Assembly: GCF_000196355.1 (NCBI RefSeq)
Contig: NC_007614.1
Location: 450,001 to 482,000, forward strand
Direction: 5' to 3'
DNA from: Nitrosospira multiformis ATCC 25196
Lineage (GTDB): Bacteria; Pseudomonadota; Gammaproteobacteria; Burkholderiales; Nitrosomonadaceae
DNA: 32,000 bases
Shown here: piece by piece, positions 4,548-30,280 of the stretch
How the letters are laid out: each line of letters starts with the position of its first letter
How positions within the stretch are numbered: position 1 is the stretch's first letter
Made by a program: the position numbers and the translations under genes
Notes under the pieces: model-generated
The model's input: only the letters and a program-made list of their open reading frames with translations
Databases searched by the model: none
What the model was told of the DNA's origin: nothing

Positions 4548-4576
4548 TTGACAATGACTTATCCCCAGCGCATCAT
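4548..4576 (+). promoter_or_regulatory. candidate sigma70-type promoter for the 4822-7354 operon
   Basis: TTGACA (4548-4553), a 17-nt spacer, then CATCAT (4571-4576, 4/6 match to TATAAT). It lies ~245 nt upstream of the ATG at 4822, inside a ~650-bp non-coding divergent region. Pattern match only. Confidence 0.2.
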
Positions 4577-4821
4577 TCGGGCACGCAAACTAGGCCACAA
4601 ATCAGCGGGGTCATCAAGCCTGCCGAATGAAGCAGCGCAGACTCCTGGCAGCTTGTGGACTTGAGGGAAATCGGCTGCAAAAGGATCTGGTTGGTCCATA
4701 TTTTGCCGCTCTTTTGATCAATAGAAATAGAACGACTATTGACCTGCAAAATCGTCAATTCTGTCCTCACTCAGCCAATTTTTTGCTTCGATTCTTCAAG
4801 TCCGACAGAGACTGCTGGCCG

Positions 4822-13464: not shown

Positions 13465-14769
13465 ATGAGTGCCTGGAGTCTCGACAGAATTACGCAGGCA
13501 TTGAGTGGTGCAATGTGGACGTTTTCCTCTCTGCCTGAGGACAACTCGGCCGCCACTTTCGTCCATCGATGTTTCCGGCGGGAAAGCTGGCGAGGTGCCG
13601 GGTTTCGCGAACGCACCCTCATGTATGCAGCCTTACCGTTTGCGCCATTCGTCACCCTGGTGTTGGCTATCGCCTTCACTGCGCTTAACGGACAGGCTAT
13701 AAAGAAGCGGACCGGAAAAGGGATAATCCGGCAAATCCGGGAACAGTTTGAGATTGCGCTGCGATACGCGATTTTGCCCCCCTGGTATTATATTTTTGAA
13801 CTGCATGACGGCGACAAGCGGCGGCGCGCTTCTGAATACATCAACCGCTTTGAAGTAAAAACCTGCCTCTACCGCATCCTCCGTGACTACAATGGCGGCC
13901 TTCCCATCCCTGCAGAGCGCAGTACCTTCTGCATCAAGGACAAATTATGCTTCCTGTCACGCTGTCGCAGGTTCTCTATTGCCACAGCTCCTGTGTTTTT
14001 GATTGTCTCGAAGGGGGAGATCAAAGCAATTGATTGGGGCGGGTCCCTGCTCCCGGAAACCGATCTGTTCGTGAAACCGCTCCAGGGGGAGAACGGAAGG
14101 AACGCGGTACGATGGGATTATCTGGGTTCGGGGCAATATCGGCGCAACGATGGTAAACACGCCACCGCTCAAGAGGTGCTGGAGGGGTTATGCAAGGCAT
14201 CATGGCGCAGGTCTTTCCTGGTGCAGCCCCGGCTTATTAACCATAGAGAAATTGCCGATCTTGCAAATGGCACCTTGGCGACGATACGGGTAATGAGTTG
14301 CCGCAATGAGCGGGGCGAATTCGAGGCAACCAATGCGGTTTTTCGAATGGCGCAAAATGAGACCGTAGTTGTCGATAACTTTCACAGAGGCGGAATCGCA
14401 GTCAATGTCGATCTTCATACCGGCAAATTGGGAAGGGGCGCCTGCGGAGCGTGGGGATCCACAGGAGGAGGATGGTACGAGCGACATGACAAGACGGGTG
14501 TGCAGATTCTGCACCGCGAGCTTCCGTGCTGGCCCGAGTTGCTCGCGATGGTTCGATACGCCCATGGGAGCGCCTTCTCCGACCAGGTGGTAATCGGCTG
14601 GGATGTTGCCCTGCTCGACAGCGGGCCGTGCATGGTTGGAATCAACAAGGCCCCCGATCTGGACATGATCCAGCGGATAAGCCGGCGTCCGCTGGGTAAC
14701 GAGCGGTTCGGAAAGCTTCTGGCATTCAACCTGGAACGCACTGTCGAGGCTGTGCATCAATCTTCTTAA
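13465..14769 (+). CDS. sugar-transfer-associated ATP-grasp family ligase (ATPgrasp_ST-like), copy 1, with an N-terminal hydrophobic anchor
   Basis: 434 aa. ATG 13465 is the first start after an in-frame TGA at 13405-13407. ATP-grasp C-terminal signatures: LFVKPLQGENGRN, DNFHRGGIAVNVDLHTGKLG, GWDVALLDSGPCMVGINKAPDLDMIQ. A hydrophobic stretch is present (AALPFAPFVTLVLAIAFTAL). It is ~73% identical to copy 2 over a hand-counted 101-aa block. Confidence 0.8.
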   Translation: MSAWSLDRITQALSGAMWTFSSLPEDNSAATFVHRCFRRESWRGAGFRERTLMYAALPFAPFVTLVLAIAFTALNGQAIKKRTGKGIIRQIREQFEIALRYAILPPWYYIFELHDGDKRRRASEYINRFEVKTCLYRILRDYNGGLPIPAERSTFCIKDKLCFLSRCRRFSIATAPVFLIVSKGEIKAIDWGGSLLPETDLFVKPLQGENGRNAVRWDYLGSGQYRRNDGKHATAQEVLEGLCKASWRRSFLVQPRLINHREIADLANGTLATIRVMSCRNERGEFEATNAVFRMAQNETVVVDNFHRGGIAVNVDLHTGKLGRGACGAWGSTGGGWYERHDKTGVQILHRELPCWPELLAMVRYAHGSAFSDQVVIGWDVALLDSGPCMVGINKAPDLDMIQRISRRPLGNERFGKLLAFNLERTVEAVHQSS

Positions 14770-16420: not shown

Positions 16421-17172
16421 GAGATAGAAGATGACAGTTGCGGCGATACAGATGGCAGAGAAGAAGGTATGGGCACAGCGGTCGTAACGCATGGCGATCC
16501 TGCGCCAGTCCTTGAGCCGAGCGAACATGTTCTCGATCCTGTGCCTTTGCCTGTAGAGGGTCTTGTCGTATTTGATCTGGATTTTGCGATTCCTTTTTGT
16601 CGGTATGCAGGGCGTCATGCCTTTGGCACGCAACGCTGCCCGGAACCAGGCAGCGTCATAGCCGCGGTCTGCAATCAGGGTTTTGGCTTTGGGCAATGAC
16701 GGCAGCAGCACACGTGCTCCCTTGTAATCGCTCATCTGCCCTTCGGACAGGAGCATGGCCACAGGCTTGCCCTGACCGTCGCAGACCACATGAAGCTTCG
16801 AGTTCAGGCCGCCCTTTGTGCGACCGATACGGCGGGGAACATCCCCTTTTTTAGCAGGCTGGCTGCCGTGCGGTGGGCCTTCAGATGCGTGGCGTCGATC
16901 ATCAGCCTCTCGGGCGTTTCCTCTTTACCGGTCAGTTCCACAAAGATGCGGTTGAACACGCCCAGTCGGCTCCAGCGCACGAAACGGTTATACAGTGTCT
17001 TGTGCGGCCCGTATTCCCTGGGGGCATCCTTCCATTGCAGGCCATTCCGAATGACGTAGATGATCCCGCTGATCACCCGCAGATCATCAACACGGGGAAC
17101 TCCGTGGGACAAGGGAAAATAAGGTTTTATACGGTTGAACTGTGTTTCCGACAGGTAAAACAAATCTCTCAT
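16415..17172 (-). CDS. IS5-family DDE transposase, expressed as an orfA-orfB fusion by programmed -1 ribosomal frameshift
   Basis: orfA (17172-16804) begins MRDLFYLSETQFNRIKPYFPLSHGVPRVDDLRVISGIIYVIRNGLQWKDAP…. orfB (to 16415) contains …LIADRGYDAAWFR… and …RHRIENMFARLKDWRRIAMRYDR (DDE_Tnp_1-type D, D, E). orfB is in the -1 frame relative to orfA. Reading through the slip gives …LLKK GDVPRRIGRTKGGLNSKLHVVCDGQGKP…. Confidence 0.9.
16846..16852 (-). other. programmed -1 frameshift slippery heptamer A AAA AAG
   Basis: The minus strand reads CTA AAA AAG GGG at the orfA/orfB overlap. This heptamer at this position is typical of the IS427 group and other IS families with two-ORF transposases. Confidence 0.72.
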
Positions 17173-17208: not shown

Positions 17209-19119
17209 CTATTCGTGAATCATGAAATTAATAGGTCCTGAACCTAGTTGCCGAACCGGATCAGGATTGGCGAGCATCTTCCCGATCTCGATGCTGTCTC
17301 GGACGCATTCGAGATTATCCTGCCACATGCCGACGAGAATGACGGGTCGCGTCGTAGGGGATTCCGACGGATACCAGAGATCGTACATGGCGCCGCTGTC
17401 GCCGAATATGTTGCGCGAACGTATTTCCATGGGTTTGCCCCGATTATAGAAAGTGACGATGCTGGCCACGGACCACTTGCTCATGCCCACGACGATGGGC
17501 TCCTGGCCGGTTTGCCGCCGCGTATCCTCTACAATCTGCTCGATGCCCATCGTTGCCTGGCGCCAGAAATAATGCTCGGGGAAACCTTTATATATGCCCT
17601 GGTAGGGAATGCCTGGGAAGCCGAGAACGAGGTAGTGCAGTGCAATCGCATAACAAACCAGGCATGCCAGAATAGTGGGCCTCCAAGCTGCCATTACCCG
17701 ATCCGCAATCGTCGGGTTACCAGAGAAATTTCGCATTTTCCCCATCATCGAAGCCATGGCAGGCAGTGCCATAAGCCATAGCGGCCCGGTCCAGTGGAAC
17801 CGCTGGGTGTCGAAAATGCTGAGAATCAGGAAGATCGCCAGCGGCACGCCGGTGAATACCATAATGAACAGGCGGCGCCTGCAAATGGAGACGCTATTAT
17901 TCTGCCGGGTGCCGGGCAGCAATACTAGCGCGGCAGCGAGCAAGCCGGTCGGCGTAAGCAGTACGGCAAAATGAAGAATCAATTCGAATAATCCGAACTC
18001 GTCATCTCCTACGCCCCTGACGCGGCCGGACTGGAACAATATCGACATCCAGCCATGCTCCATGTTCCAGATAATTACGGGGGAGAACAAGAGCAGTGCA
18101 AGCAGTACAGCGAGGTACGGATAAGGATGGCGCAACCAGCGGCGTGCAACCGGGTCGATAATCACAAAAACCAGTGCGGCAATACCCACCAAACCCAGGG
18201 TATACTTGGAGAGAATGCCCAGACCGAAGGCAATGCCCACCCCGAGCCAAGCCCGCTCCCGCTGGGCGATCAGGGCCTGCTCGAGATAGTACAGAGTTGC
18301 AGCCCACGCGGCCACGAGCGGCGCATCTGTCGTCATCAATGCGCCAGTAGCAAAGAAAAAGGGAAGAATCGCAAGCAGCAGCACAGCGCGAATCCCCGTT
18401 GCGCTATCGTATAGATTGCGTGTGAGCGCAAATAAATACCCCATTGTTATCAAGCCGCACAGGAATGCTCCGACCCGGACGCCAAATTCGCTGTTTCCAA
18501 AAATGGATGTGCCAAGCCATATCAACCAGGCAACCATAGGTGGGTGATCGTAGAAACTCAGATCCATGTGCTGGGCGTAATTCCAGTAATATGCTTCATC
18601 AGGAATCAGTTGCGCCACGCCAATGTAGATGAGGCGCAACAGGATGACAAATGCGATGATCCCGAAAGAGGCGATGCGCCAGTCTGCCTCAGGCGAGGGT
18701 AGGGCGTTCCCGCTGGGGATCACGTAGAAAACAGATCCCAGATACAACATTACGGCTGTGGCCGCGATTGCAGGGAGTATGGCCGCAGCCGGCGGTATAT
18801 CCCAGGCCTGGATTAGCACCGCTAATAGGCCGCCGCGCACGGAAAGCGCCAGCACACAGATAACCAGGAAGCGGCCGAGCTCAGTCCATCTGGAATAGCC
18901 CGCGAGGTCGTATAAAAGCCGCGGTCTCGAAATAAACCAGTAGTGCAAGGTCGCAGCCGCGAGGAAGCCCACGATATGCGACAGGGCGAGGTTTGCCCCA
19001 TAGCTCATCAGCGACTCGAACAGCAGTCCGTCGAGGAACGCGGCCAATAACCCTGGGACTGCAAAACGACTGTGATCCGGAAATAGGGGACGTCGCCCAA
19101 CTCCAGCCAGCTCAAGCAT
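17209..19119 (-). CDS. GtrA-like 4-TM N-terminal region fused to a GT39/GT83-type (ArnT/PMT_2) lipid-carrier-dependent glycosyltransferase; 3' end truncated by IS insertion
   Basis: PMT_2 signature: PDEAYYWNYAQHMDLSFYDHPPMVAWLIWLGTSIFGNSEFGVRVG, followed by many TM segments and a soluble C-terminal domain. The start is taken at ATG 19119, preceded by AAGGAG 9 nt upstream; the listed TTG at 19149 is less likely. The last 11 codons (GSGPINFMIHE*, 17244-17209) are encoded by the IS end. Confidence 0.88.
   Translation of the reverse strand: MLELAGVGRRPLFPDHSRFAVPGLLAAFLDGLLFESLMSYGANLALSHIVGFLAAATLHYWFISRPRLLYDLAGYSRWTELGRFLVICVLALSVRGGLLAVLIQAWDIPPAAAILPAIAATAVMLYLGSVFYVIPSGNALPSPEADWRIASFGIIAFVILLRLIYIGVAQLIPDEAYYWNYAQHMDLSFYDHPPMVAWLIWLGTSIFGNSEFGVRVGAFLCGLITMGYLFALTRNLYDSATGIRAVLLLAILPFFFATGALMTTDAPLVAAWAATLYYLEQALIAQRERAWLGVGIAFGLGILSKYTLGLVGIAALVFVIIDPVARRWLRHPYPYLAVLLALLLFSPVIIWNMEHGWMSILFQSGRVRGVGDDEFGLFELILHFAVLLTPTGLLAAALVLLPGTRQNNSVSICRRRLFIMVFTGVPLAIFLILSIFDTQRFHWTGPLWLMALPAMASMMGKMRNFSGNPTIADRVMAAWRPTILACLVCYAIALHYLVLGFPGIPYQGIYKGFPEHYFWRQATMGIEQIVEDTRRQTGQEPIVVGMSKWSVASIVTFYNRGKPMEIRSRNIFGDSGAMYDLWYPSESPTTRPVILVGMWQDNLECVRDSIEIGKMLANPDPVRQLGSGPINFMIHE
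17226..17243. repeat. IS terminal inverted repeat (transposase-proximal end)
   Basis: The plus strand reads AATTAATAGGTCCTGAAC. Its reverse complement, GTTCAGGACCTATTAATT, pairs with 16403-16420. Confidence 0.78.
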
Positions 19120-19344
19120 TTTTTCCTGCTCCTTTGGAAACCATATCAAGTTGACTTTGTTCTGTTTTTCTCGCTTGTGCCGATTTTATCTATTCTGCTC
19201 TCGGATAAGATAGAAGATAACTCTGGAATTCATTTTTGTCCCCCTCATCTTGTAGCACAAGTTCGCTATACGGAGGCTTGCAGACTCTGATTCAGCTATC
19301 ATTCCGGCGTCGTCGGAATACTGGCTGCGTCTTCTGTTCACCGC

Positions 19345-20058
19345 TCAACCTGTATGGCCGGTCAATCCGGTGTCTGCGTAGTAATGCCGGATTGGATGCA
19401 GGTTATCGTCAAGCTCATAGATCAGTGGACGACCAGTGGCCACTGACAATTTTATGAGCTGAATAATGGATAGGCCATCCAACTGCATTATCAACCCTCT
19501 CAGGATATGCTTGTGGGCGACAATGAGCACTCGCTTGCCGCGCTGGATTTCCGGGGTGATTGTTTGCTGCCAGTAAGGCAGCATTCGCGCGAAGGCTTGT
19601 CGCATGCTCTCACCAAGCGGCAGTTCCCCAGGATCGATGGTTGCATAGCACGCCTGGTTTCCGGGAAAACGGATATCGGCAGGATCAAGTGGGGGTGGCG
19701 GAGCATCAAAACGGCATTGCGAACTGAGAATAGGGCAAAAGCCGTATTTCCTGATTGCCTTCCAGCGATTGATTCCTTCCAGAGCCCCATAGTGGCGTTC
19801 ATTCAAGCGCCAGTTTCGTTGCACCACCGGTTCATCCTGCCCCATGACCGATAGCACGATGCGGAGCGTGTCATTCGCGCGGCTGAGCTCGGAGGTGAAG
19901 CAGATATCGAACTTGTGTCCTGCTTTTTTCAAGAGATTGCCCGCCTGCTCTGCCTCCCGCTCGCCTCGGGGCGTCAAAGGAGCATCCCCCCACCCGGTAA
20001 AGCATCCGTCGCGGTTCGAGACGCTTTCTCCATGTCGCAGCAGAACGAGTTGTGTCAT
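19345..20058 (-). CDS. gpmA: 2,3-bisphosphoglycerate-dependent phosphoglycerate mutase-like histidine phosphatase
   Basis: 237 aa with an ATG start. Motifs: [29 protein letters not shown] (RHG motif), [39 protein letters not shown]. It departs from the canonical dPGM at RHGESxWN (here SN) and AHGNSLR (here AHKHILR). Confidence 0.72.
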
Positions 20059-20327
20059 ATAGGGTTTGCTTCTCGATTAGGGAATGGATTCGACATGGGC
20101 ATGCTCCGGGGGGGGACAGCATCTCTTTTGCATGAGGGTGTCATTTGATCTGAAATTTCGATGATATGTAAAACATAGACAAAATACCGGGAAAAAACTA
20201 CCCCAGTTCGCGATGAAGGCGGGTGCCAAATAACCCGGGTCGGAACAGATATCTGATCGGGGAACGGGGAATGTGGCAATAGCCCAGTTTCCCCAGGTTT
20301 TCTGAAGAGGCGCACATTATCAGGGTA

Positions 20328-20786
20328 TCAAGGCCAACAGGAGATGAGCTGCTCCTTTATCAGCCGATTGGTGTCGGCATCCGTCTTTGTAGCCTTGTTG
20401 AAGTCTGGCGGACCCGGCCAGCCGGAATCGATGAATTTCACGCCGTTGAAATAGCGGCCTTCCCCATATCGCGGAATGACATGAAAATGTACATCCGGAT
20501 CGACCATCATCAGCATGAGGTAGTTGAGCTTGTCGTAGTTGAATGCTTTAGCCAAAGCCGATTCCAGCTGGCCCGTTATTTTGTGAAGCTCAGTAAAGCT
20601 TTCCTGACCAAGCTGGGAGAAGGAGCGGGCTGGCTCATGCGCAGCAAGAACGAGAGAACCCAGGGTCACCTGGATTGGACGCAGCATGACGATCCAGTGC
20701 TGAAATTGATGAATGATTGTCCCCGGCGCGCCGAATTTCCGCATCGTGGGATTTAGGATTGCGGTACCGGAGGGGGTGGGAGTCAT
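20328..20786 (-). CDS. HIT (histidine triad) family protein
   Basis: 152 aa with an ATG start. The triad region is MMVDPDVHFHVIPRY (the first His of HxHxHxx is Asp here). The upstream …WIVMLRPIQVTLGSLVL… is typical of HIT beta-strands. Confidence 0.75.
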   Translation of the reverse strand: MTPTPSGTAILNPTMRKFGAPGTIIHQFQHWIVMLRPIQVTLGSLVLAAHEPARSFSQLGQESFTELHKITGQLESALAKAFNYDKLNYLMLMMVDPDVHFHVIPRYGEGRYFNGVKFIDSGWPGPPDFNKATKTDADTNRLIKEQLISCWP

Positions 20787-21180
20787 TTAGCACCTTCTAA
20801 ACGGGGGGTTTTGCTGATGGGTTGAATATGTGGACCATGCGGATCGGCCCAATGGAGGCAGCATCAAAAGTTTTCCAGAATAGCATGAACCCATGAATAA
20901 ATCCCTGCAGGCGCGAGTATGACTTTACGGGATGATCATGGAAAAACAACCCCGGTTATGTGCGCTGGCACACATACACTTTTACTGCCGAGTGAAAGAA
21001 TTTTGCTGATCCGAAAAAACGCTGCCGACGATCGGCTTGCTGCTTGACTGCCATTCAGCCACGCTTCAAGAGCCTGCTCACGCGCGGGCTTGCCCGGGGT
21101 TCTTCAGCGAGCATGACAAAAACTAGAAATACATTGCTCTTCCCATTTTTTGACATCTCGTCGAAGGAAGCTGAAAGACC

Positions 21181-22503
21181 ATGAAGATTGTGAATGATCT
21201 GGGTATCGACAGGATCACCCGGGACTTGAGCGGTGCCATGTGGATCTTTGGTCGCTTGCGTGAAGACGATAGCTCCACGGCGACTTTTATCCACCGCTGC
21301 TTCCAGCGCGAGATCTGGCGCGAGATCAGGTTACGCGACAGGATCGCGATGTGCGCAGTTTTGCCAGCCGTACCGCTCGTCATCATGGGGGTGACCGCTG
21401 TCTTCACCGCGCTCAACGGATCGGCTATAAAGAGACGCACGGGAAAAGGAATCATCCGGCAGATTCGCGAGCAGATCGAACTTGCGCTCCACTGTGCGAT
21501 CCTGTCTCCCTGGTACTACATCTTCGAGTTGCATGACGATGACAAGAAGCGGCACGCCGGAGAGTATCTGAATCGCCTCGAAACCAAGGCCGGACTTTAT
21601 CGCTTCCTGCGCGATTACAATGGCGGTCTTCCTGTTCCTGCTGTGCGAAGCACTCCCTGCATTTCCGACAAATCGTGCTTCATGGCTCGTTGCCGCGAGC
21701 ATGGAATCATGACAGCCCCTGTATTCTTCAAGATCATGGGAGAGAAGGTCACAGCAGTGGATTGGAATGGCACCGGCCTGCCGGAGACCGATCTCTTTGT
21801 AAAGCCATCGCATGGGCGGGGCGGTAGAAATGCGACTCGCTGGATTTACCTCGGTTCAGGGCAGTACCGGCGCAACGATGGCGAGATTCTGACCGGAACT
21901 CAGTTGCTGGAGCGCTTGCGACTGGAATCACGGCAAAAAGCTTTCCTGATTCAGCCTCGGCTTCTGAATCATGAGGATATCGCAGATCTTGCCAATGGTA
22001 CGCTGGCGACAGTGCAGGTAATGAGCTGCCGTAACGAGCGGGGCGAATTTGAAGTAATCAATGCAGTTTTTCGGATGGCCCGGAAAAAATCCGTGATAGT
22101 GGACAATTTTCACGCTGGAGGAATTGCAGCCAACGTCGATATTCGCACCGGTGAATTGGGGAGAGGAACCGGTGGCGCGTGGGGCGCCACTGCTGATGGA
22201 TGGTACGAGCGCCACTGCGAGACGGGGGTGCAGATCCTGCACCGGAAGCTTCCATGCTGGCCTGAGCTGGTCGATCTCGTGCAATACGCTCACGCCAGCG
22301 CCTTTTCCGATCAGGTGGTAATCGGATGGGATGTTGCCCTGCTCAACAGCGGACCGTGCATAATGGAGGCCAACAAGGCGCCTGATCTGGACATTATTCA
22401 GAGAGTGGGAGGCGGTCCGGTTGGCGAGCAGCGACTGGGAAAACTTCTGGCATTTAATCTCAGACGAACCGTCGAGACTAAATACAACAGGCCTGCCCCC
22501 TAG
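21181..22503 (+). CDS. sugar-transfer-associated ATP-grasp family ligase (ATPgrasp_ST-like), copy 2
   Basis: 440 aa with an ATG preceded by GAAGGAAG. It is collinear with 13465..14769 along its whole length: DNFHAGGIAANVDIRTGELG, GWDVALLNSGPCIMEANKAPDLDIIQ, and a hydrophobic anchor (AVLPAVPLVIMGVTAVFTAL). Confidence 0.82.
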   Translation: MKIVNDLGIDRITRDLSGAMWIFGRLREDDSSTATFIHRCFQREIWREIRLRDRIAMCAVLPAVPLVIMGVTAVFTALNGSAIKRRTGKGIIRQIREQIELALHCAILSPWYYIFELHDDDKKRHAGEYLNRLETKAGLYRFLRDYNGGLPVPAVRSTPCISDKSCFMARCREHGIMTAPVFFKIMGEKVTAVDWNGTGLPETDLFVKPSHGRGGRNATRWIYLGSGQYRRNDGEILTGTQLLERLRLESRQKAFLIQPRLLNHEDIADLANGTLATVQVMSCRNERGEFEVINAVFRMARKKSVIVDNFHAGGIAANVDIRTGELGRGTGGAWGATADGWYERHCETGVQILHRKLPCWPELVDLVQYAHASAFSDQVVIGWDVALLNSGPCIMEANKAPDLDIIQRVGGGPVGEQRLGKLLAFNLRRTVETKYNRPAP

Positions 22504-23285
22504 CGCTGCAAAGTTACGCTTCTACTCAGCTTCTTCTCGCTGAAGAGCTCTTCTGCCTTTATCAGATCAGCGGGAAAATCAATTTCACACCAGGAGCTTT
22601 CCGGTACAAAACACGCTTTTACCAGTTGTCTGCTGGCAAGGTTCTCTATTATGGAGAGATACCAGGCTTTGAGTCCACTCTGATGTCGCAGCGCTTCCTC
22701 CAGGGTATCGCGAAAAAGCAGCGGTCCACGTTCTCTGAAAAGAACAAGGCCGACAGATTCGGCATCGATCCGATCTGCCGGCAGCGTTTTGCTGACATGT
22801 CTGACCCATCCGTTTTCATCCAGTTGGACTTTCATGTCATCCGCATCATAGGCAGGTTTTTGATCTACACCGAGCGTAACAGGCGCTGGATCAGAGTTCA
22901 GCACTCTCGCCAGTAAAACTTCCTCAAACAGCGTATCCCCGTTCAGAAGCAGAAAGTCGCGGTCCATGGCCGATCGGGCGATCCAGCAACTCACCAGGTT
23001 ATCCGTAATACTGAAAAAAGGGTTGAAAACGGTCTCGATCCTTCCATCGTTTCCATAACGCTGTTGCAATAAAGTTTCAATCAGGCAGGATTGGAAACCG
23101 GTGATCACTGTCACCAGGTTGATCCCTGTTGACAGCAGGGCATCGATCTGCCATTCGATGATAGGTTTGCCGGAAATTGGCAACAGGCATTTGGGAATAC
23201 TGGTTGTCAGTGGACCCAGCCGGTGCCCCTGGCCGGCGCTCAGAATAATCGCCTTGACAGGAGGTTTTTCTTCGCTACCCGCCAT
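22500..23285 (-). CDS. sugar-/alcohol-phosphate nucleotidyltransferase (LicC/PntC/MobA-like NTP_transferase family)
   Basis: 261 aa with an ATG start. Motifs: KAIILSAGQGHRLGPLTTSIPKCLLPISGKPIIEWQIDAL, then …FNPFFSITDNLVSCWIA…FLLLNGDTLF, as in LicC-type cytidylyltransferases. Confidence 0.85.
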   Translation of the reverse strand: MAGSEEKPPVKAIILSAGQGHRLGPLTTSIPKCLLPISGKPIIEWQIDALLSTGINLVTVITGFQSCLIETLLQQRYGNDGRIETVFNPFFSITDNLVSCWIARSAMDRDFLLLNGDTLFEEVLLARVLNSDPAPVTLGVDQKPAYDADDMKVQLDENGWVRHVSKTLPADRIDAESVGLVLFRERGPLLFRDTLEEALRHQSGLKAWYLSIIENLASRQLVKACFVPESSWCEIDFPADLIKAEELFSEKKLSRSVTLQR

Positions 23286-23407
23286 ATTGCAATCCGCTCC
23301 CTCGAAATCGAATAAGCTCTGAAGTTATATTTTTAAAGCATTGCCGGGTTTGTATCTGGCCGCTTGACGTGGAGTGAGTGGAGATGCGGCTGAGAATGAG
23401 GCTGTAT

Positions 23408-24049
23408 TCAAAGGAGTAACGGGCTCAGGTCGGGCAGCACATCTACATGCGCTGGAAAAGGATTTTGATCGCCAGGACGTACACGGCCTATAAACGCGAC
23501 ATTGTTGACCATGGCGCTCTGATAATCGATCAAGGCGTCTCCGATCATCAGCACGCGCTCTGGCAGGAGGCGATGGGTAGTCAGGATATCTGCGATCAGT
23601 TTCTGCTTGGGAGTGGGTGAACCGCGCACAGCAGTAAAATAGGACTCCAGACCACGGCGAACAACGATCGTATTCAATTCGGTTTCCGGGGTACCGGATG
23701 CAACAAACAAGGGAATACGCCCCGCTTCACGCTGGATCAGCTCCGCTGCGCCTGGAACCGGGGCGCTGGCAATCACAGCTTCGACCACCAGTTCGGAAAA
23801 GCGCTGATCGAGTTGCCGCTCCTCCTCCGCGGTGAGTGGAGGTTTTTCCAGCAGCATTTCCTGAAAGTAACGAAATTTCTGATAGCGCGACATGCCGCCG
23901 TTCAGGACATGATATTTCGCAACCTCGACCATTACCTCCTCGCCGTATTCCTGGTAGAGGTTGGCAAACGCCTGTGTCTTGATTTCTCCTGATTCGACCA
24001 CGACCCCGTCGAAATCGAAAATGATCGCTTGCCATGCAGCAGTCTTCAT
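23408..24049 (-). CDS. HAD-superfamily hydrolase (beta-phosphoglucomutase/phosphatase-like, capped subfamily I)
   Basis: 213 aa. Motif I is AIIFDFDGVVVES. Later motifs include LFVASGTP and VLMIGDALIDYQSA. The ATG overlaps the upstream gene's stop (ATGA, 24046-24049). Confidence 0.85.
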   Translation of the reverse strand: MKTAAWQAIIFDFDGVVVESGEIKTQAFANLYQEYGEEVMVEVAKYHVLNGGMSRYQKFRYFQEMLLEKPPLTAEEERQLDQRFSELVVEAVIASAPVPGAAELIQREAGRIPLFVASGTPETELNTIVVRRGLESYFTAVRGSPTPKQKLIADILTTHRLLPERVLMIGDALIDYQSAMVNNVAFIGRVRPGDQNPFPAHVDVLPDLSPLLL

Positions 24050-24975
24050 GCCTTATTATCCGACGCCAGCGGTATGATCTCCTCATTTTCACCCGAATGG
24101 TGCATGCTCTGATGAATATCCTGAAGGCAATCCAGCAGCCCCTGGCCCAGATCGACATGCTCGTTCAGAACCAGCTTGCGGCCGATCCGCGGCTGATAAG
24201 CATAAGGCGTTACTTCGTAATGATGCCCCGCACGGGCCTCGTCGAAACGCAGATCGACTTTCCAGGGCATAATTTCTGAAATCATTGTCATTACATCCTT
24301 GATGTGCAACCGCTCCTGCCCTGTCAGGATCAGGTGACGATTCGCAAACTCCGGTGCCAGCACTTGTACGCTCATGCGCGCCGCATCTTCCACATGAATA
24401 TATTCCCGAATTGCTTCTCCACTGCCGTGATAAGTAATCGAGTGCTGTTCCAGCGCCTCGTACAGCATGCGGTAGATGCCGTTTCTCGCGTCGGCGCGTC
24501 GGCCATAGAGCGAGCCATAGCGCAAAATACTATACTCCAGGCCATAACGCTCGTGGTAGGTTTCGATGAAACGTTCCGCTGCCTGCTTGCTGGCCCGGTA
24601 AAAGGAACCCGATTCGGAATAGACGTAAATCGTGCTCGCGAAGACAAAGCGCCGGGCGCCGGCAAGACGCGCTGCTTCCAGTGTATGCATGTTACCCAGC
24701 ACATTGATGGTCGCCGTAGCGATGGGTTTTTCCTGTGCTTCGTCAATATCTGCAATGGCGGCAAAGTTGTAAACCACGTCAGCACCATGAGCCGCTTCCT
24801 TCACCTGCTCAAGATCCATGATATCGCCAATGATCATCTCCTGATCCGCGCGCTGGTAGCGCGATGGAGAGCGGTCGAACAGGCGCACCCGATAGCCCGA
24901 GTCGGAGAGCGCGTCGGCAACGTGACTGCCCAGAAAACCGCTGGCGCCATAGACAATGGCAATCTCGCTGGACAT
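24046..24975 (-). CDS. NAD-dependent epimerase/dehydratase (extended SDR)
   Basis: 309 aa. Motifs: IVYGASGFLGSHVADAL (GxxGxxG), FYRASKQAAE (YxxxK), FASTIYVY. Confidence 0.9.
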   Translation of the reverse strand: MSSEIAIVYGASGFLGSHVADALSDSGYRVRLFDRSPSRYQRADQEMIIGDIMDLEQVKEAAHGADVVYNFAAIADIDEAQEKPIATATINVLGNMHTLEAARLAGARRFVFASTIYVYSESGSFYRASKQAAERFIETYHERYGLEYSILRYGSLYGRRADARNGIYRMLYEALEQHSITYHGSGEAIREYIHVEDAARMSVQVLAPEFANRHLILTGQERLHIKDVMTMISEIMPWKVDLRFDEARAGHHYEVTPYAYQPRIGRKLVLNEHVDLGQGLLDCLQDIHQSMHHSGENEEIIPLASDNKA

Positions 24976-24983
24976 CTGCTGTT

Positions 24984-25931
24984 TTAACCTTTTTCCATTA
25001 CACCGGCTTCGATCAATCCGCGCACCAGATTTTCCGCGGCTTCCAGTTCCATACGCTGACGCGATTCCTTTGCAAGAGAGCCGATATGGGAGGTCAGTAT
25101 TGCGTTATCGCATTGCAGTAACGGGCCATGGTAAGGTTCCTGCTCGAAAACGTCCATTGCCGCTCCTCCAAGCTGCCCGCTGTTCAGGGCATCGGCCAGC
25201 GCTGCTTCATCTATCAGCCCACCCCGGGCGGTATTGATGACGATCGCGCCAGGCTTCATCCGTGCAAACGTTTTTTCATTCAACAGATGGTGAGTGTCCG
25301 CGTCGTAGGTCAGGTGCAGGCTGATGATATCCGCTTCGGCTATCAAGGTTTCGAAGGGTACCAGTTTCACGCCTTCCATTCCCGGAGGCATCTCCTTTAC
25401 ATAAGTATCGTGCGCCACCACCTGCGCTTCGAACGCACGACACAATCGGGCTACACGTGATCCTACCCGTCCAAGCCCCACAATTCCCACCTTTTGGGCA
25501 GCCAGCAGACCTCCCTGGGCCCGGGGCCACTGCCCCGCGCGAACCTGTTTATCTGTCTGGCATATCTTCCTCAATGCTGCCATTATAAGGGCCAGCGAGA
25601 GCTCGGCAACCGCCTGTGCGGGAGCTTCCGGCGTGTTCAACACCTTGATTCCATGCCGTTTCGCTGCGCCAAGATCGACGCTGTCGAGGCCGCTGCCGCA
25701 GCGCGATACGACTTTCAGGCTCCTCGCGCAGGAGAAAACCCGCTCTGTGAGAGGCTCCACGCCTGCGATCATTCCCACCGTATCTTCGCCCAGCAGGGCG
25801 ATAACCTCATCCTCGGTAAGTTTCCTCTTATGACTGTTTTCGGCAATGGGTATGCCCCTCTCCTGTAAAGGCCGGAGAGCACTATTATGGCTGACATCGA
25901 ATGACGAGGTGGAAATCGCAAGTTTGTTCAT
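24984..25931 (-). CDS. D-isomer-specific 2-hydroxyacid dehydrogenase (PGDH/GhrA-like, no ACT domain)
   Basis: 315 aa. Motifs: VGIVGLGRVGSRVARL (GxGxxG) and …IVINTARGGLIDEAALADALNSGQLGGAAMDVFEQEP…LTSHIGS (catalytic R/E/H pattern). The ATG overlaps the aldolase stop (ATGA, 25928-25931). Confidence 0.9.
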   Translation of the reverse strand: MNKLAISTSSFDVSHNSALRPLQERGIPIAENSHKRKLTEDEVIALLGEDTVGMIAGVEPLTERVFSCARSLKVVSRCGSGLDSVDLGAAKRHGIKVLNTPEAPAQAVAELSLALIMAALRKICQTDKQVRAGQWPRAQGGLLAAQKVGIVGLGRVGSRVARLCRAFEAQVVAHDTYVKEMPPGMEGVKLVPFETLIAEADIISLHLTYDADTHHLLNEKTFARMKPGAIVINTARGGLIDEAALADALNSGQLGGAAMDVFEQEPYHGPLLQCDNAILTSHIGSLAKESRQRMELEAAENLVRGLIEAGVMEKG

Positions 25932-26689
25932 AGAGCTTCCCTGATGTTTTGCAGATGACTGCGGCAGACGGTATCGAGAATGCGGATATCCAGGCCATAG
26001 CCAAGAAAACTGAAGCCCGCCTCGATATTGCGGCGCAATTGTTCCGGATTGGGTTCGACTACATGAATGCCGCCTGCCTTGCCCGCGCGTCGCCCGGCAT
26101 CTTTTACCCGTTCTACCGCAGCCTGGACTTCCGGATCAGCGAGTTCTCCGGGACGGCCGAGCGATCCTGAAAGATCGTAGGGACCTATGATATAAGCATC
26201 GATTCCCGGAACGGAAAGAATCGAATCGATGGCATCGACTGCATCGATATGCTCGATCATGGCAATGATGACGGCATTTTCTTCCAGCCAGTGGCGATAT
26301 TGCTGAAATCGCGCGCCATACCCCTGGGCGCGTGCAAGCCCGACTCCACGTTGTCCGCGTGGAGGGTAATATACTGCGTTTACGGCCGCTTCGGCATCCG
26401 CCGCCGTTTTGATCATGGGTACCATTACGCCTGTCGCTCCTGCATCCATGACCCGCTTGATCTGATCAGGATGATTCGACGTCAATCGCACGATGGCGGG
26501 ACATGCACGGCTGTCGAGCACCTGGATCAGCATCTGAACTTCGCTCAGTTCCAGAACGCTGTGTTCCGTATCCAGCACCAGCCAGTCAAATCCCGCCGCG
26601 CCCATGATATCGGCGATGGAAGGATGTCCCAAAGTGATCCAGGAGCCGATGGTCAAGGCGTTGCGCGCCAGTTTTGCTTTTAATTGCAC
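25928..26689 (-). CDS. HpcH/HpaI-family class II (metal-dependent, pyruvate-specific) aldolase
   Basis: 253 aa. The GTG start at 26689 is preceded by AAGGTG 5 nt upstream. Motifs: LTIGSWITLGHPSIADIMGAAGFDWLVLDTEHS, IVRLTSNHPDQIKRVMDAGATGVMVPMIKTAADAEAAV, YYPPRGQRGVG. These match HpaI/HpcH/GarL-type aldolases. Confidence 0.87.
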   Translation of the reverse strand: MQLKAKLARNALTIGSWITLGHPSIADIMGAAGFDWLVLDTEHSVLELSEVQMLIQVLDSRACPAIVRLTSNHPDQIKRVMDAGATGVMVPMIKTAADAEAAVNAVYYPPRGQRGVGLARAQGYGARFQQYRHWLEENAVIIAMIEHIDAVDAIDSILSVPGIDAYIIGPYDLSGSLGRPGELADPEVQAAVERVKDAGRRAGKAGGIHVVEPNPEQLRRNIEAGFSFLGYGLDIRILDTVCRSHLQNIREAL

Positions 26690-26739
26690 GTATGCACCTT
26701 GAGAAATGAAGTGCGTCTGAGAGAATTATGAAGTCCGCA

Positions 26740-27507
26740 TCAGTATGATGCGAGTAACGGGTCTTTCTCCATCAGTCTGGCTACACGCTCCAGGTCGGCC
26801 TGGGTGTCGACAGCTTGGGTATTGAACCGGGTTTCCACCATTTTTACACGATAACCATGCTCCAATAGCCGCAGCATGTCCACCGATTCAAGCTTTTCGA
26901 GCGGCGTGGACGGCAGCGTGGAGAATTCGAGCAACGTTTTTCGGCGGAAAGGAATGATGCACACCTGTTTAAAGGCCAGGGTATGCGGAAAATCAGATCC
27001 GGCGGACAGAGCAGACGCCGGCACAGTCGGAATCGGTTGGCGTGACATGAAGAGAGCGTCGCCACGCCGGTCTGTCACAACCTTGATTGTATTGAAGTCG
27101 TAGAAATCCCCTTTATTATCGATGCTCCGCATGAGATTCACGCACCCCAAGTCCGGGTCATGCCGGAACGGATCCACGGCTGCGTCGATCATCTCCGGAT
27201 GAGTCATGGGTTCATCGCCCTGTACCATGACGATAAGTTCAGCATCCATTTCTGCCACCGCCTCGGCCACGCGGTCACTCGCACGTTCGTGAGTATCCGC
27301 AGTCATAATGACCGGTGCACCGAAATTCTCTGCGGCGCGTCGTATTTCGTCATCGCAGGTGGCTATATAGGTTGCATCAAGCGCTTTGCTCAAGGCGACA
27401 CGTTTATACACATGCTCGAGCATGGTTCGGCCCAGCAGGTTCGCAATGGGTTTTCCGGGAAAACGGGACGAACCCATACGGGCCGGTATAACAGCAATTG
27501 TTTTCAT
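26740..27507 (-). CDS. KdsB-like cytidylyltransferase (3-deoxy-manno-octulosonate cytidylyltransferase family)
   Basis: 255 aa with an ATG start. Motifs: IAVIPARMGSSRFPGKPIANLLGRTMLEHVYKR, …ASDRVAEAV…, VMVQGDEPMTHPEMID. The length and motif order match CMP-Kdo synthetase. Confidence 0.85.
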   Translation of the reverse strand: MKTIAVIPARMGSSRFPGKPIANLLGRTMLEHVYKRVALSKALDATYIATCDDEIRRAAENFGAPVIMTADTHERASDRVAEAVAEMDAELIVMVQGDEPMTHPEMIDAAVDPFRHDPDLGCVNLMRSIDNKGDFYDFNTIKVVTDRRGDALFMSRQPIPTVPASALSAGSDFPHTLAFKQVCIIPFRRKTLLEFSTLPSTPLEKLESVDMLRLLEHGYRVKMVETRFNTQAVDTQADLERVARLMEKDPLLASY

Positions 27508-27864
27508 GTGGGATTTATGTTAATTGAAGGCGATGAGGCCGAGCTTTTCACTTTGACTGATGACTGCCTTTATTTATCGGGATAGGTTGCCCTTTAAAGG
27601 TGCGCATCAGGCATTGGAGGATTATGTGCTGAATTCTGCAGCTATGGTTTGGCGATTGCAGCAGGAGAGCGGCAAAAATCGGGCTAATGGCTAAGTGGTG
27701 ACTCCATTTTAACAGAAGGCCGGGGAAGTAAAAACATCTGTAATGCTAGTAAAACGGGTATCAGCGCGTGTAGAATTGTAAGATTTTTCCCTGAGAATGT
27801 CTAAAGGACCTCAAAATGAGGAGATGCAGCGTATTGCTTGCGTCCAAGGAATAGGTATGCTGGT

Positions 27865-29187
27865 ATGAAAGCTTTATTTTTCCTTCGTCATTATAATGAC
27901 ATCGATCACATTACCCCGGTCATTTACAAATGGACCAGCAAGGGTCATACCTGCGACATCATCCTGATCGGCAACTCGCGATTCCGGACGGATTATCGCA
28001 TCGGATTCCTGAAAGGCCTCAAGGGTGTGCGGATGGCTTACATTGCGGATGTATTGCCGCCGCTCGACTTTATCAGATGGTTTTTCCAGACGCTGATACT
28101 GATCCGTAGCCTGCGCCGCCCCTTCCTCGGGCCGATCATGAAAAAACTGGAGGAGGTTTATGATGCCAAGCGGCGCGAGCCTGTCTGGCAGCGCACCGCG
28201 GAGTGCTTGTTGACCCGGAGTTTCGCAGCGAATGAGGAAGGCGTGGTGGTGTTTGACTGGATAGAACGCAACTCCTCCATCTGCGTGGAATGGGTCAAGG
28301 TGGTATTGTCGACGGCGCGCCGGATGGGCCTGGGCACGGTATCGCTGCCGCATGGAGACAGTCCCCACGCCAGTCAGTTGATCCGGCGGCGCGAGTTGCG
28401 CCTGGAGCCGGATACCACATTTGCCAATGCCGGCATTTTCGAGAAGGTTGTGGTGCCGAACGAGTTATGCTCGGTGCGTTTTCGCCCTTTCATGGATAAC
28501 CAGAAACTTGCGATACTCGGTTCCCCGCGCTACTGCGACGAATGGCTCGCCAAACTGGCAACGTTGATGCCCCCGTCACCGCTGACGCGAACCGGTAGCA
28601 ACCTCAAGGTGGCGATGTTTCTGAGAAAGAGTAATTTTTCCACTTTCTGGGAAGAAGTGGGAGAGGTAGTGCGCATAGTGGCAGGCTTTCCGGGAGTGGA
28701 ACTTATAATAAAGCCGCATACCCGCGGCGGCTGGCAGCAATCCCTGACAAAAGATATTTCGCTCCGGCGCTTGCCCAACGTGCGGGTAGCAGGCGGCAAT
28801 CTTCATTCCATCCATCTGATGAACTGGGCAGATGTCATTATCGATCTTGCCACTTCTGTAGTATTCGAGGCGGTAAAGGTCGGAAAGCCTGTACTGGCGG
28901 CGGATTACTTGCACGCCGGTCGGTCGGCTCTTGCTGAATACCTGCCGGAAGCAGAATTGCGCTGTCGCGATGATGTGTATAAACACATGGAAAAATTCCT
29001 TACCCAGGGTTGTGATTCTTTTTATATAGAAGAGCATCGTCAACGCTTTCTCAAGGAAATGATCGATGTAGGGGATCCGGACGTGTTATCGCGTTATGTC
29101 GCGCTGCTGGAGGAACAAGTGCGGTCAAAGGCAGACCAGAGCCAGCCCGAGCCGCAAGGCAACACCAAAGATTTCGCTTTTGCCTGA
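27865..29187 (+). CDS. uncharacterised conserved protein, paralogue B of 10682..12001
   Basis: Start taken at ATG 27865 (MKALFFLRHYNDIDHITPV…), which aligns with residue 1 of paralogue A. The listed ORF begins at an upstream TTG (27838). It has the same conserved blocks as paralogue A but lacks A's Lys-rich insertion. Confidence 0.82.
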   Translation: MKALFFLRHYNDIDHITPVIYKWTSKGHTCDIILIGNSRFRTDYRIGFLKGLKGVRMAYIADVLPPLDFIRWFFQTLILIRSLRRPFLGPIMKKLEEVYDAKRREPVWQRTAECLLTRSFAANEEGVVVFDWIERNSSICVEWVKVVLSTARRMGLGTVSLPHGDSPHASQLIRRRELRLEPDTTFANAGIFEKVVVPNELCSVRFRPFMDNQKLAILGSPRYCDEWLAKLATLMPPSPLTRTGSNLKVAMFLRKSNFSTFWEEVGEVVRIVAGFPGVELIIKPHTRGGWQQSLTKDISLRRLPNVRVAGGNLHSIHLMNWADVIIDLATSVVFEAVKVGKPVLAADYLHAGRSALAEYLPEAELRCRDDVYKHMEKFLTQGCDSFYIEEHRQRFLKEMIDVGDPDVLSRYVALLEEQVRSKADQSQPEPQGNTKDFAFA

Positions 29188-29233
29188 TCAGCCGGCTTCG
29201 CTGGTAGTTTTCTCAAGGAGGTTACTGAGCCGT

Positions 29234-30280
29234 ATGCCGGCGATGCCCCCCATCGATGTGGTGATTCCCGTCTATAATGCACCAGCGTTGACACGGCGCT
29301 GCATCGATTCGGTCGTTGCCTGCCTGAGCCCATCCATACGCTTCATTTTCATTCAGGACGACGCGTCGGGAATGGAAACCCATGCCATGCTGGATCAATT
29401 GCCGCGCGGGCGCATACGCGTGCACCACGCGCGGGAGAACCAGGGTTTCGGTGCCTCGGTAAACGAAGCAATCAGTCGATCCGATGCATGCTACGTGCTG
29501 GTCCTGAACTCCGACACAGTAGTGGGCGAAGATTTTTTACCGCTCTTATACGCGACACTCGTCGCCGATTCCCGGCTGGCAGTCATCATCCCCGCAGGGA
29601 ATGATTTTGCCGGATATGATTTGAACCGGTATGTGCGGCAGCCGGGCGGCTATGTTCAGACACACCGCCTTCGGGGTCACGCGTTTCTCATCCGCCGGGA
29701 GGTATTCCGGGATGCGAACGGTTTCGATCTGGCCTTCGGCCGCGGCTACTATGAAGATGTCGATCTCGGGCGCCGCCTCAACAAACGTGGTTGGCGGGTG
29801 GGCGTGCATCCGGATGCTCACATACAACATGAGGGGGGCGGCTCGTTCGGGCGGGGCCGCTCCTTCAAGAAACTGGTCAGGCGCAATCGTAAGCTTTTTT
29901 TTTCGCGCCATCCCAGCGCAAAGCGTAATATTCTCCTTCTTTCCGGAGACTGCCCCCTAGCGTATTTTCCATCGAGCCTGCTAGAGGCGCTCGACGAGGT
30001 ATTTTGCGGAGGAGGATACGTTTACTGGCTTTCGCCCGAAGCGGCAGGCATGCTTCTCTGTTTGCAGATGAGGAGCCTCTTGTCAGGCGTGGACGCTGCC
30101 GTGCGGTTATTCTTGTGCAGTTGGCGTGAGGACAAGCGCATTTCGGAAATCTGGATATTGCCCGATGTTCCACGCGTGCGGTATGAGGCACTGACCTTAT
30201 GGGCGCGTATTTGCGGCTTGCGGATACTGACCTGGGAAAGGGTGCCGACCGAAGAAAATTGTACTCCTAGGCTACTATGA
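29234..30280 (+). CDS. GT2-family glycosyltransferase with a ~110-aa unassigned C-terminal extension
   Basis: Start taken at ATG 29234, with AAGGAGG at 29214-29220. The listed ORF starts at 29096, inside the end of the upstream gene. GT2 signatures: IDVVIPVYNAPALTRRCIDSV, FIQDDASG, NQGFGASVNEAI, VLNSDTVV, YYEDVDLGRR. Confidence 0.85.
   Translation: MPAMPPIDVVIPVYNAPALTRRCIDSVVACLSPSIRFIFIQDDASGMETHAMLDQLPRGRIRVHHARENQGFGASVNEAISRSDACYVLVLNSDTVVGEDFLPLLYATLVADSRLAVIIPAGNDFAGYDLNRYVRQPGGYVQTHRLRGHAFLIRREVFRDANGFDLAFGRGYYEDVDLGRRLNKRGWRVGVHPDAHIQHEGGGSFGRGRSFKKLVRRNRKLFFSRHPSAKRNILLLSGDCPLAYFPSSLLEALDEVFCGGGYVYWLSPEAAGMLLCLQMRSLLSGVDAAVRLFLCSWREDKRISEIWILPDVPRVRYEALTLWARICGLRILTWERVPTEENCTPRLL

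Follow-up and report, generated by a model that had tools for sequence, protein, structure and literature searches.

Introduction

To our knowledge, all characterised routes to ulosonic acids activated with cytidine monophosphate (CMP), namely Kdo (3-deoxy-D-manno-octulosonate), Kdn, Neu, Leg, Pse and their relatives, use synthases that depend on phosphoenolpyruvate (PEP). Here we analyse a 32-kb stretch of the Nitrosospira multiformis ATCC 25196 genome (NC_007614.1, positions 450,001 to 482,000), called the window below, in which a minus-strand cassette of five genes places a KdsB-like cytidylyltransferase next to a class II aldolase of the HpcH/HpaI family. From sequence comparison we lean towards the view that the enzymes of this cassette make a 2-ulosonic (alpha-keto sugar) acid, different from Kdo, without PEP and activate it with CMP. 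The chances appear even that it represents the first PEP-independent, aldolase-based route to a CMP-ulosonic acid, spread over many bacterial phyla and at least one archaeon, with an orphan or undescribed sugar acid as its product. A description of this gene set was not found in the literature searched, which comprised open-access full text only, so that its absence there is no proof.

Results

A cassette of overlapping genes in N. multiformis

A first-pass annotation of the window had described six minus-strand open reading frames (ORFs) as one translationally coupled unit. All six are present:

26740..27507, minus strand: KdsB-like cytidylyltransferase, PF02348 (CTP_transf_3), E 9e-45
25928..26689, minus strand: HpcH/HpaI class II aldolase, PF03328 (HpcH_HpaI), E 9e-36
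24984..25931, minus strand: D-2-hydroxyacid dehydrogenase (2HADH), PF02826 (2-Hacid_dh_C), E 6e-59, and PF00389 (2-Hacid_dh), E 2e-21
24046..24975, minus strand: extended short-chain dehydrogenase/reductase (SDR), PF01370 (Epimerase), E 1e-43
23408..24049, minus strand: haloacid dehalogenase (HAD)-IA phosphatase, PF00702 and PF13419
22500..23285, minus strand: LicC-like nucleotidyltransferase, PF00483 (NTP_transferase), E 8e-12

Read from the sequence, the aldolase/2HADH and SDR/HAD junctions are ATGA overlaps (25931-25928 and 24049-24046, respectively), and the 2HADH and SDR genes are separated by 8 bp (24983-24976). ORF coordinates, Pfam and NCBIfam matches and the junctions thus all agree with the genes, families, overlaps and short gap that had been described. 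A 50-bp gap separates the cytidylyltransferase from the aldolase, whose GTG start is preceded by AAGGTG. The gap between the HAD and LicC-like genes measures 122 bp, and a terminator scan found none in it.

The first five genes are conserved across distant phyla

A scan in which each species was represented by one genome, with the aldolase-clade alignment as query, yielded 80 loci, about 50 from Nitrosomonadaceae and 29 from other lineages. The latter include Desulfobacterota, Omnitrophota, SAR86, Cohaesibacter, Micavibrio, Bdellovibrionota, Dehalococcoidia and Saccharibacteria as well as Nitrospirales, Planctomycetia, Ignavibacteria, Flavobacteriales, Gallionella, Syntrophomonas wolfei and the archaeon Methanoperedens. 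To compare neighbourhoods, taken as 20-kb stretches, we used every window protein as a tblastn query and then clustered all ORFs in the vicinity; 35 loci were analysed. The five most recurrent neighbour families correspond exactly to the first five genes of the window: the cytidylyltransferase is present in 34 of the 35 loci, the aldolase in 32, the SDR in 27, the 2HADH in 25 and the HAD phosphatase in 18. Since the order of these genes is shared by the genomes of about 50 Nitrosomonadaceae species and the set recurs in many distant phyla, their arrangement is conserved far beyond chance.

The tightest association is that of the aldolase with the cytidylyltransferase. The two genes are adjacent or nearby in the approximately 50 Nitrosomonadaceae species, and a PF02348 cytidylyltransferase lies near the aldolase in 29/29 distant loci, 25 of these enzymes being KdsB-like, three PseF-like and directly adjacent, and one another CTP_transf_3 protein at a distance of 3 kb. 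Moreover, the 478-residue metagenomic protein P0153 combines an N-terminal, PseF-like cytidylyltransferase domain with a C-terminal aldolase that is 46% identical to that of the window. This fusion was found on four contigs from at least three independent data sets (L002 10001-11437, also L003 and L004), in a glycan context that includes a 2HADH gene. As one aldolase clade is thus paired with two lineages of CMP-transferase, KdsB-like and PseF-like, and is fused to one of them, there is strong genomic evidence that the two enzymes are functionally coupled, the product of the aldolase being the predicted substrate of the cytidylyltransferase. The coupling proposed in the first-pass annotation is therefore well supported, by neighbouring genes in all of the about 80 species loci, from bacteria and an archaeon, and by the fusion. 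Two further candidate fusions, in L074 and L060, were ruled out as ORF-picking artefacts, the genes lying in different frames.

The sixth gene of the proposed unit does not share this conservation. Whereas the first five genes are conserved together, the LicC-like gene directly follows the HAD gene only in some Nitrosospira (L006, L010, L011, L013 and L055). It is located upstream of the cassette, with HIT-like, His_Phos_1 and GT-C glycosyltransferase genes, in three Nitrosomonadaceae metagenome-assembled genomes (MAGs; L015, L036 and L041), and was not found in any of the non-Nitrosomonadaceae cassettes examined. Judged by this distribution, it is outside the conserved cassette and belongs to a separate, variable module. 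Nor do the HAD and LicC-like enzymes appear to form a second branch of the pathway, as had been suggested: because all 12 distant loci with a HAD gene also carry a 2HADH gene, the HAD phosphatase is a core cassette component, and the LicC-like gene travels with other genes. In the window (17209-23285, minus strand), these are a weakly matching HIT-like gene (20328-20786), a histidine-phosphatase/GpmA-like gene (19345-20058) and a GtrA+PMT_2 GT-C gene (17209-19149). The group, seen on either side of the cassette in L006, L013, L015, L036, L041 and L055, looks like a separate modification module.

The context of the cassette is glycan biosynthesis throughout, with flippases, NeuB, DegT and glycosyltransferases in other loci; NeuB is present in 4 of 30 distant loci.

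The cytidylyltransferase subfamily has an altered sugar pocket

In the cytidylyltransferase of the window, the PF02348 fold is recognisable, and both the CTP-binding P-loop (PAR..S.R.PGK) and the Mg/sugar motif QGDEP are conserved. It is a member of the NF009905/PRK13368 subfamily (292.5 bits, cutoff 255) and remains below both kdsB equivalog cutoffs (TIGR00466, 130.2 vs 155.2 bits; NF003948, 155 vs 281). Partners from the archaeon, a Firmicute, SAR86, a planctomycete and Saccharibacteria score 308-325 bits on NF009905, and the KdsB-like partners from distant phyla therefore form one subfamily. Some of the distant cassette enzymes also pass TIGR00466 (158-175 bits vs 155).

The best PDB match is the capsule CMP-Kdo synthetase (K-CKS) of Escherichia coli, 1GQ9 (E 5e-45, ∼37% identity). 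We aligned the cassette enzymes with 1GQ9 and with Coxiella KdsB (3TQD). The window enzyme retains the motifs PARMGSSRFPGKP, QGDEP, SRQPIP and VDT, and all cassette-type enzymes retain PARMxSSRFPGKP, QGDEP, SRxPIP, VDT and Gln98. The SRxPIP arginine aligns with Arg165 of CMP-Neu5Ac synthetase, which is joined to the sugar carboxylate by a salt bridge (PMC2901514). In E. coli KdsB, Q98 and Y185 hydrogen-bond to the C5-OH of Kdo and H181 lies in the active site (PMC12199768). D100 is also documented among the Kdo-binding residues. All cassette-type homologues carry KQVCIIPF in place of the KdsB K/R-H-V-G-I-Y-A-Y and ESVDMLR in place of E-S/A-L-E-Q-L-R. In E. coli numbering, the Kdo-contact residues H181 and Y185 thus give way to Q and I, respectively, and the LEQLR motif becomes VDMLR; the replacements are invariant from Nitrosospira to the archaeon. 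Recognition of an alpha-keto acid appears to be retained, with the distal sugar contacts apparently swapped for more hydrophobic residues. The combination of retained CTP, Mg and carboxylate motifs with replaced Kdo contacts indicates that the substrate is probably a 2-ulosonic acid other than Kdo. We therefore predict a CTP:2-ulosonic-acid cytidylyltransferase and not an orthodox CMP-Kdo synthetase, the label that databases attach to the family.

These data bear on the possibility that the cassette provides ordinary CMP-Kdo by an alternative or capsule-type supply, in which the aldolase would act as a Kdo aldolase on D-arabinose and pyruvate (EC 4.1.2.23) and the cytidylyltransferase would be KpsU-like. 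Such a role would suit the capsule-specific K-CKS as best solved relative, the members that exceed the TIGR00466 kdsB cutoff, the name given to the family in all databases, and the location of the cassette in a lipopolysaccharide (LPS)-core region with the Kdo hydroxylase KdoO. However, the invariant loss of the Kdo contacts and the scores of the window protein under both equivalog cutoffs speak against it, and the tightly linked methyltransferase, dehydrogenase and SDR are not needed for Kdo. In addition, among the carriers of the cassette are Firmicutes, Dehalococcoidia, Saccharibacteria and an archaeon, none of which is known to synthesise lipid A, and this argues for a role other than ordinary Kdo supply. 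We consider this explanation unlikely.

The aldolase is related to, and distinct from, catabolic enzymes

Residues H43, R68, E146 and D172 of the aldolase align with the catalytic His/Arg/Glu/Asp of GarL (1DXE) and are invariant or nearly so across the clade. We predict a metal-dependent 2-oxoacid aldolase that would catalyse the C-C bond-forming step towards the ulosonic acid. Databases label the protein ‘dihydroxyheptenedioate/deoxyglucarate aldolase’; it scores far below the corresponding catabolic equivalog cutoffs, at about half of the value for HpaI (187 vs 369) and GarL (179 vs 407) and at 148 vs 441 for RhmA. Its closest relatives are all from Nitrosomonadales. Cytidylyltransferase-linked aldolases are 49-60% identical to it, and plasmid-borne catabolic homologues, which are not accompanied by a cassette-type cytidylyltransferase, reach at most 41%. 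In line with this, a search of a plasmid collection with both proteins returned only canonical KdsB (≤36% identity) and catabolic aldolases (≤41%) and no cassette.

That a catabolic HpaI/GarL-type aldolase and a kdsB paralogue came to lie side by side by chance is hardly credible. The nearest named families of the aldolase (HpaI, GarL and RhmA) are indeed catabolic, but the low equivalog scores, the distance to the plasmid-borne homologues and the absence of hpa, gar or rhm catabolic neighbours from all 85 loci point away from a degradative enzyme. Together, the synteny kept over about 80 species loci in several phyla and the existence of a fusion protein effectively refute chance juxtaposition.

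Dehydrogenases, phosphatase and variant cassettes

The 2HADH has PGDH as its best NCBIfam match (259 bits, against the SerA equivalog cutoff of 454) and a short phosphoglycerate dehydrogenase (1WWK, E 2e-58) as its best PDB match, and also resembles glyoxylate, glycerate and 2-ketogluconate reductases (e.g., 9M0T, E 1.5e-43). All 25 cassette 2HADHs carry ‘MIA-GVEP’ in place of the ‘IVRSATK’ of PGDH, with loss of the VRS arginine, and they retain the catalytic Arg/Glu/His in the motifs ARGG, EQEP and SHIGS. They thus represent a distinct, cassette-specific subfamily of D-isomer 2-hydroxyacid dehydrogenases predicted to act on a 2-hydroxy/2-oxo acid.

The best PDB matches of the SDR, 6WJB and 6WJ9, align over residues 1-207 only, and the C-terminal substrate domain matches nothing solved. 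Reading by eye revealed the motifs GASGFLG and YRASK and ‘STIYVY’ where dehydratases have TDE; on the LegB model the protein reaches 93 vs 475 bits. The SDR therefore appears to be of the extended epimerase/oxidoreductase type and not of the 4,6-dehydratase type (RmlB, LegB or PseB). In 16 of 19 distant loci it is accompanied by the 2HADH. The HAD protein, with a DFDG motif at residues 12-15, matches best to the phosphorylated-carbohydrate phosphatase TM_1254, CbbY and beta-PGM in the PDB and weakly to 6-phosphogluconate phosphatases. It is predicted to be a sugar-phosphate-type phosphatase and the counterpart of KdsC.

Several further families adjoin the core genes. In 17 loci, the aldolase/cytidylyltransferase pair is adjoined by a gene for a Zn-ribbon S-adenosylmethionine (SAM) methyltransferase, and in nine the HAD gene has a PF04199 ‘cyclase’ hydrolase gene next to it. 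In N. europaea-type loci and in Micavibrio, the HAD gene is accompanied, in two gene orders, by a 6-phosphogluconolactonase domain (TIGR01198, 162 bits vs cutoff 124):

L047, 11145-11828 (N. europaea): TIGR01198 domain
L001, 13295-13978: TIGR01198 domain
L056: TIGR01198 domain
L080, 9364-9975 (Micavibrio): TIGR01198 domain

In variant cassettes, a GmhA-like SIS isomerase, a GFO oxidoreductase and an IMPase replace the SDR and HAD genes, or an AroB-related enzyme is added. With its SIS isomerase and IMPase-type phosphatase, the variant reproduces the isomerase, synthase, phosphatase and CMP-transferase logic of Kdo synthesis. The locus of the P0153 fusion is a third architectural variant; its neighbours include a 575-aa ‘LIC13510-type surface carbohydrate biosynthesis’ protein, an AroB-related TIGR04425 enzyme, adh_short, 2HADH, SIS and GFO. 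The LIC13510-type family (c23) adjoins the cassette in archaeal, Firmicute and fusion loci.

The dehydrogenase could also be taken to define the donor. In this alternative, D-glycerate or a phosphorylated precursor would be turned into hydroxypyruvate by the 2HADH together with the phosphatase, and the aldol product would be a 3-hydroxy (Ko-type) rather than a 3-deoxy 2-ulosonic acid. A role independent of the acceptor would suit an enzyme found in 25 of 35 loci, without which the HAD is never seen in the distant loci (12/12) and which the IMPase adjoins in variant cassettes. Likewise, the closest relatives of the 2HADH are PGDH and glycerate/glyoxylate reductases, and structures exist of HpcH-family aldolases that use hydroxypyruvate, e.g., the ‘hydroxyketoacid aldolase’ 6R62, which the window aldolase matches with E 5e-30. 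On the other hand, the VRS arginine of PGDH helps to bind the phosphate of 3-phosphoglycerate (3-PG), and its loss from all cassette 2HADHs makes a step from 3-PG to phosphohydroxypyruvate doubtful. Nothing in the aldolase sequence tells the donors apart, and in some loci, several of them on truncated contigs, the aldolase and the cytidylyltransferase form a minimal module, to which the methyltransferase may be added, that has no 2HADH. Hydroxypyruvate as donor is a possibility, though a rather doubtful one.

The lactonase points to a different series of reactions, in which the accessory enzymes themselves would make the substrate. The SDR or a GFO enzyme would oxidise C1 of a sugar 6-phosphate, Pgl or the ‘cyclase’ would open the lactone, a KguD-like 2HADH would oxidise C2 and the HAD enzyme would take off the phosphate, giving a 2-keto-aldonic acid that is then activated with CMP; the aldolase would be left with a side role, for instance in remodelling or in epimerisation through retro-aldol and aldol reactions. 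The 6-phosphogluconolactonase domain beside the HAD gene, the PF04199 hydrolase that takes the same slot in nine other loci, the 2-ketogluconate reductases among the relatives of the 2HADH and the weak matches of the HAD protein to 6-phosphogluconate phosphatases are all consistent with this series. Yet the tightest and most universal pair is that of aldolase and cytidylyltransferase, the very two that are fused in P0153, and the series leaves the aldolase without a clear function. In addition, the window contains no lactonase, and the match of the SDR to an SDR-type glucose-6-phosphate dehydrogenase covers only the Rossmann part. We regard this series as quite unlikely, and both it and the hydroxypyruvate donor are ranked below the pyruvate-aldolase scheme.

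A model for the cassette-encoded pathway

Starting from the gene content, its conservation, the fusion, the conserved catalytic residues and the altered sugar pocket observed here, we infer a pathway in which the enzymatic steps and their order, the donor and acceptor, and the destination of the sugar would be as follows. The class II aldolase, in place of KdsA or NeuB, would add a 2-oxoacid enolate, in the simplest case that of pyruvate, to an aldose or its phosphate to give a 4-hydroxy-2-oxo (3-deoxy-2-ulosonic) acid. The HAD phosphatase would remove the distal phosphate in a KdsC-like manner, and the KdsB-like enzyme would transfer CMP from CTP to the anomeric C2 hydroxyl. The 2HADH and the extended SDR may prepare the aldehyde partner or tailor the product; other lineages add a methyltransferase, an SIS isomerase and a hydrolase, either a lactonase or the ‘cyclase’ type. 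In loci that have it, the SIS isomerase would be the counterpart of KdsD, and the IMPase an alternative counterpart of KdsC. Finally, a divergently encoded GT-B protein and a family 2 glycosyltransferase (GT2) would install the sugar in the LPS core or a surface glycan. Candidate products may be an ulosaric acid of the Dha type, as put forward in the first-pass annotation, a Kdo-like acid that is short-chain or O-methylated or, from hydroxypyruvate, a 3-hydroxy Ko-type acid.

Several points weigh against this scheme. The conserved 2HADH, the third most conserved component in our ranking, has a role that a simple Kds-like scheme leaves unexplained, and the lactonase beside the HAD gene hints at a sugar-acid-lactone chemistry that the scheme does not need. 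The reading of the pocket draws on two contact residues documented in the literature and on motif comparison rather than on a ligand complex, and the members that pass TIGR00466 make Kdo activity possible from sequence alone.

Genes surrounding the cassette

The genes discussed as transferases lie on the opposite strand, across a divergent intergenic region:

27508..27864: intergenic region between the cassette and the GT-B gene, with one promoter-like site for the cassette strand
27865..29187, plus strand: GT-B-fold protein without Pfam family, divergent from the cassette
29096..30280, plus strand: GT2, PF00535 and PF13641, downstream of the GT-B gene

The promoter-like site, TAGACA-17-TACAAT (minus strand, 27803-27775), matches 10 of 12 positions, in a region whose site counts are not clearly above those of shuffled controls. 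Nearly all Nitrosomonadaceae loci have the GT-B gene next to the cassette, and in a Desulfobacteraceae MAG (L057) the two share an operon. The family start MKALFFLRHYNDIDH places its start codon at the ATG at 27865 and not at the TTG at 27838. An AlphaFold2 model built with a multiple sequence alignment reached a predicted local distance difference test score (pLDDT) of 73.6 and a predicted TM score of 0.76, whereas the single-sequence model (pLDDT 41) was unusable. Foldseek related the model to UDP-GlcNAc 2-epimerases (E 2e-12, TM 0.55-0.60), GT1 glycosyltransferases and the TagF-like polymerase 8QOY; a family profile searched against PDB sequences gave marginal matches only, with the TagF-like Cps3D at E 0.43. 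The modelled two-Rossmann-domain GT-B fold suggests that the protein is probably a transferase for the activated sugar; alternatively, by analogy with NeuC and PseG, it may be an NDP-sugar hydrolase/epimerase that gives a free aldose. Comparison of this family with the LIC13510-type family c23 by hhalign (E 0.0015, probability 17%) showed only a shared IKPH(T/P) C-terminal region, a suggestive match on which we do not rely. In N. cryotolerans, two near-tandem copies of the GT-B family, P0319 (..101840) and P0360 (..101838), carry the UniRef label CDP-glycerol:poly(glycerophosphate) glycerophosphotransferase. The GT2 gene adjoins the GT-B gene in many Nitrosomonadaceae loci. As called from 29096, it overlaps the GT-B gene by 92 bp; its Pfam match begins at residue 51, which makes Met47 (∼29234) the likelier start.

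The wider window is a surface-glycan region that encodes KdoO and Wzy_C, a pair of ATP-grasp proteins, enzymes of the GT2 and GT-C types and, set apart, a NeuB-type module, and the proteins of the region are 90-98% identical to those of N. multiformis Nl12. Features that bear on the cassette are:

563-7354: PEP-dependent ulosonic-acid module of the classical NeuB type, at the left end of the window
563-1768, minus strand: CTP_transf_3+HAD fusion
1768-2646, minus strand: NeuB-family synthase, ∼22 kb from the cassette
4627-5538: second CTP_transf_3
5535-6521: GFO_IDH_MocA oxidoreductase
6518-7354: adh_short
12317-13270, plus strand: Kdo hydroxylase KdoO, PF11004, E 2.5e-90
13465-14769 and 21181-22503, both plus strand: two ‘sugar-transfer associated’ ATP-grasp paralogues, PF14397

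The first-pass annotation had taken the aldolase for the only C-C bond-forming enzyme, which is correct within the operon but not for the window, where a NeuB-family PEP-dependent synthase is found in the module at 563-7354. The region thus holds both a PEP-dependent and an aldolase-type pathway. The presence of KdoO implies that ordinary Kdo2-lipid A is produced, with a Kdo residue being turned into Ko, and is indirect evidence for a canonical Kdo pathway elsewhere in the genome. The ATP-grasp proteins could amidate the carboxylate of a sugar acid; the second gene (21181-22503) is missing from the Nl12 locus and thus varies between strains. An IS4/IS5-family transposase fragment (16804-17172, minus strand; DUF4096, E 6.5e-22) between an O-antigen-ligase-like and a GT-C gene marks a rearrangement point in the glycan region.

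Discussion

If the proposed pathway is correct, a pyruvate aldolase would provide a second, mechanistically different solution to the synthesis of CMP-ulosonic acids, the new element being a different C-C bond-forming enzyme. The cassette could then account for the origin of orphan sugar acids; for Dha, according to PMC3355719, the activated form was not yet known. The subfamily PRK13368, automatically annotated as ‘CMP-Kdo synthetase’, would be misnamed. The cassette is abundant in metagenomes, where it is uniformly annotated as a CMP-Kdo synthetase plus a catabolic aldolase, and reconstructions that derive Kdo/LPS synthesis or aromatic catabolism from this annotation are therefore probably wrong. 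Those affected would be of ammonia oxidisers, syntrophs, Dehalococcoidia, candidate phyla radiation (CPR) bacteria and Methanoperedens. As the cultured models N. europaea and N. multiformis both carry the cassette, the proposal is directly testable. Class II aldolases coupled to promiscuous CMP-transferases might also be useful biocatalysts for CMP-sugar analogues.

Among the catabolic enzymes, HpaI, GarL and RhmA/YfaU share the fold, the Pfam family and the catalytic His/Arg/Glu/Asp set with the cassette aldolase. The latter differs from them in scoring below their equivalog cutoffs and in its biosynthetic synteny, and its direction is likely synthetic.

A close parallel to the cassette is the Kdo pathway of KdsD, KdsA, KdsC and KdsB, which likewise would lead from an aldose phosphate through a ulosonic-acid phosphate and the free ulosonic acid to a CMP-sugar. 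Both have a KdsB homologue with conserved CTP/Mg and carboxylate motifs and a HAD phosphatase, and variant cassettes add an SIS isomerase. In contrast, the cassette operon lacks KdsA or any other PEP-dependent synthase and has a class II 2-oxoacid aldolase instead; its Kdo contacts are replaced, 2HADH and SDR are additional, and its carriers include organisms without lipid A. E. coli K-CKS (KpsU), the closest solved homologue, offers the example of a second, glycan-specific cytidylyltransferase beside the housekeeping one, but it retains the KHVGIYAY and SLEQLR motifs that are lost in the cassette subfamily and has no linkage to an aldolase.

With the nonulosonic acid pathways of NeuB/PseI/LegI and NeuA/PseF/LegF, the cassette would share the joining of a free or phosphorylated sugar to a three-carbon keto-acid unit, followed by CMP activation. 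Their loci are similarly glycan loci with SDRs, methyltransferases and glycosyltransferases, and a PseF-like partner is found in three aldolase loci and in the fusion. However, the synthases of these pathways belong to the PEP-using NeuB family (PF03102), whereas the cassette would employ an HpcH/HpaI aldolase for the corresponding step.

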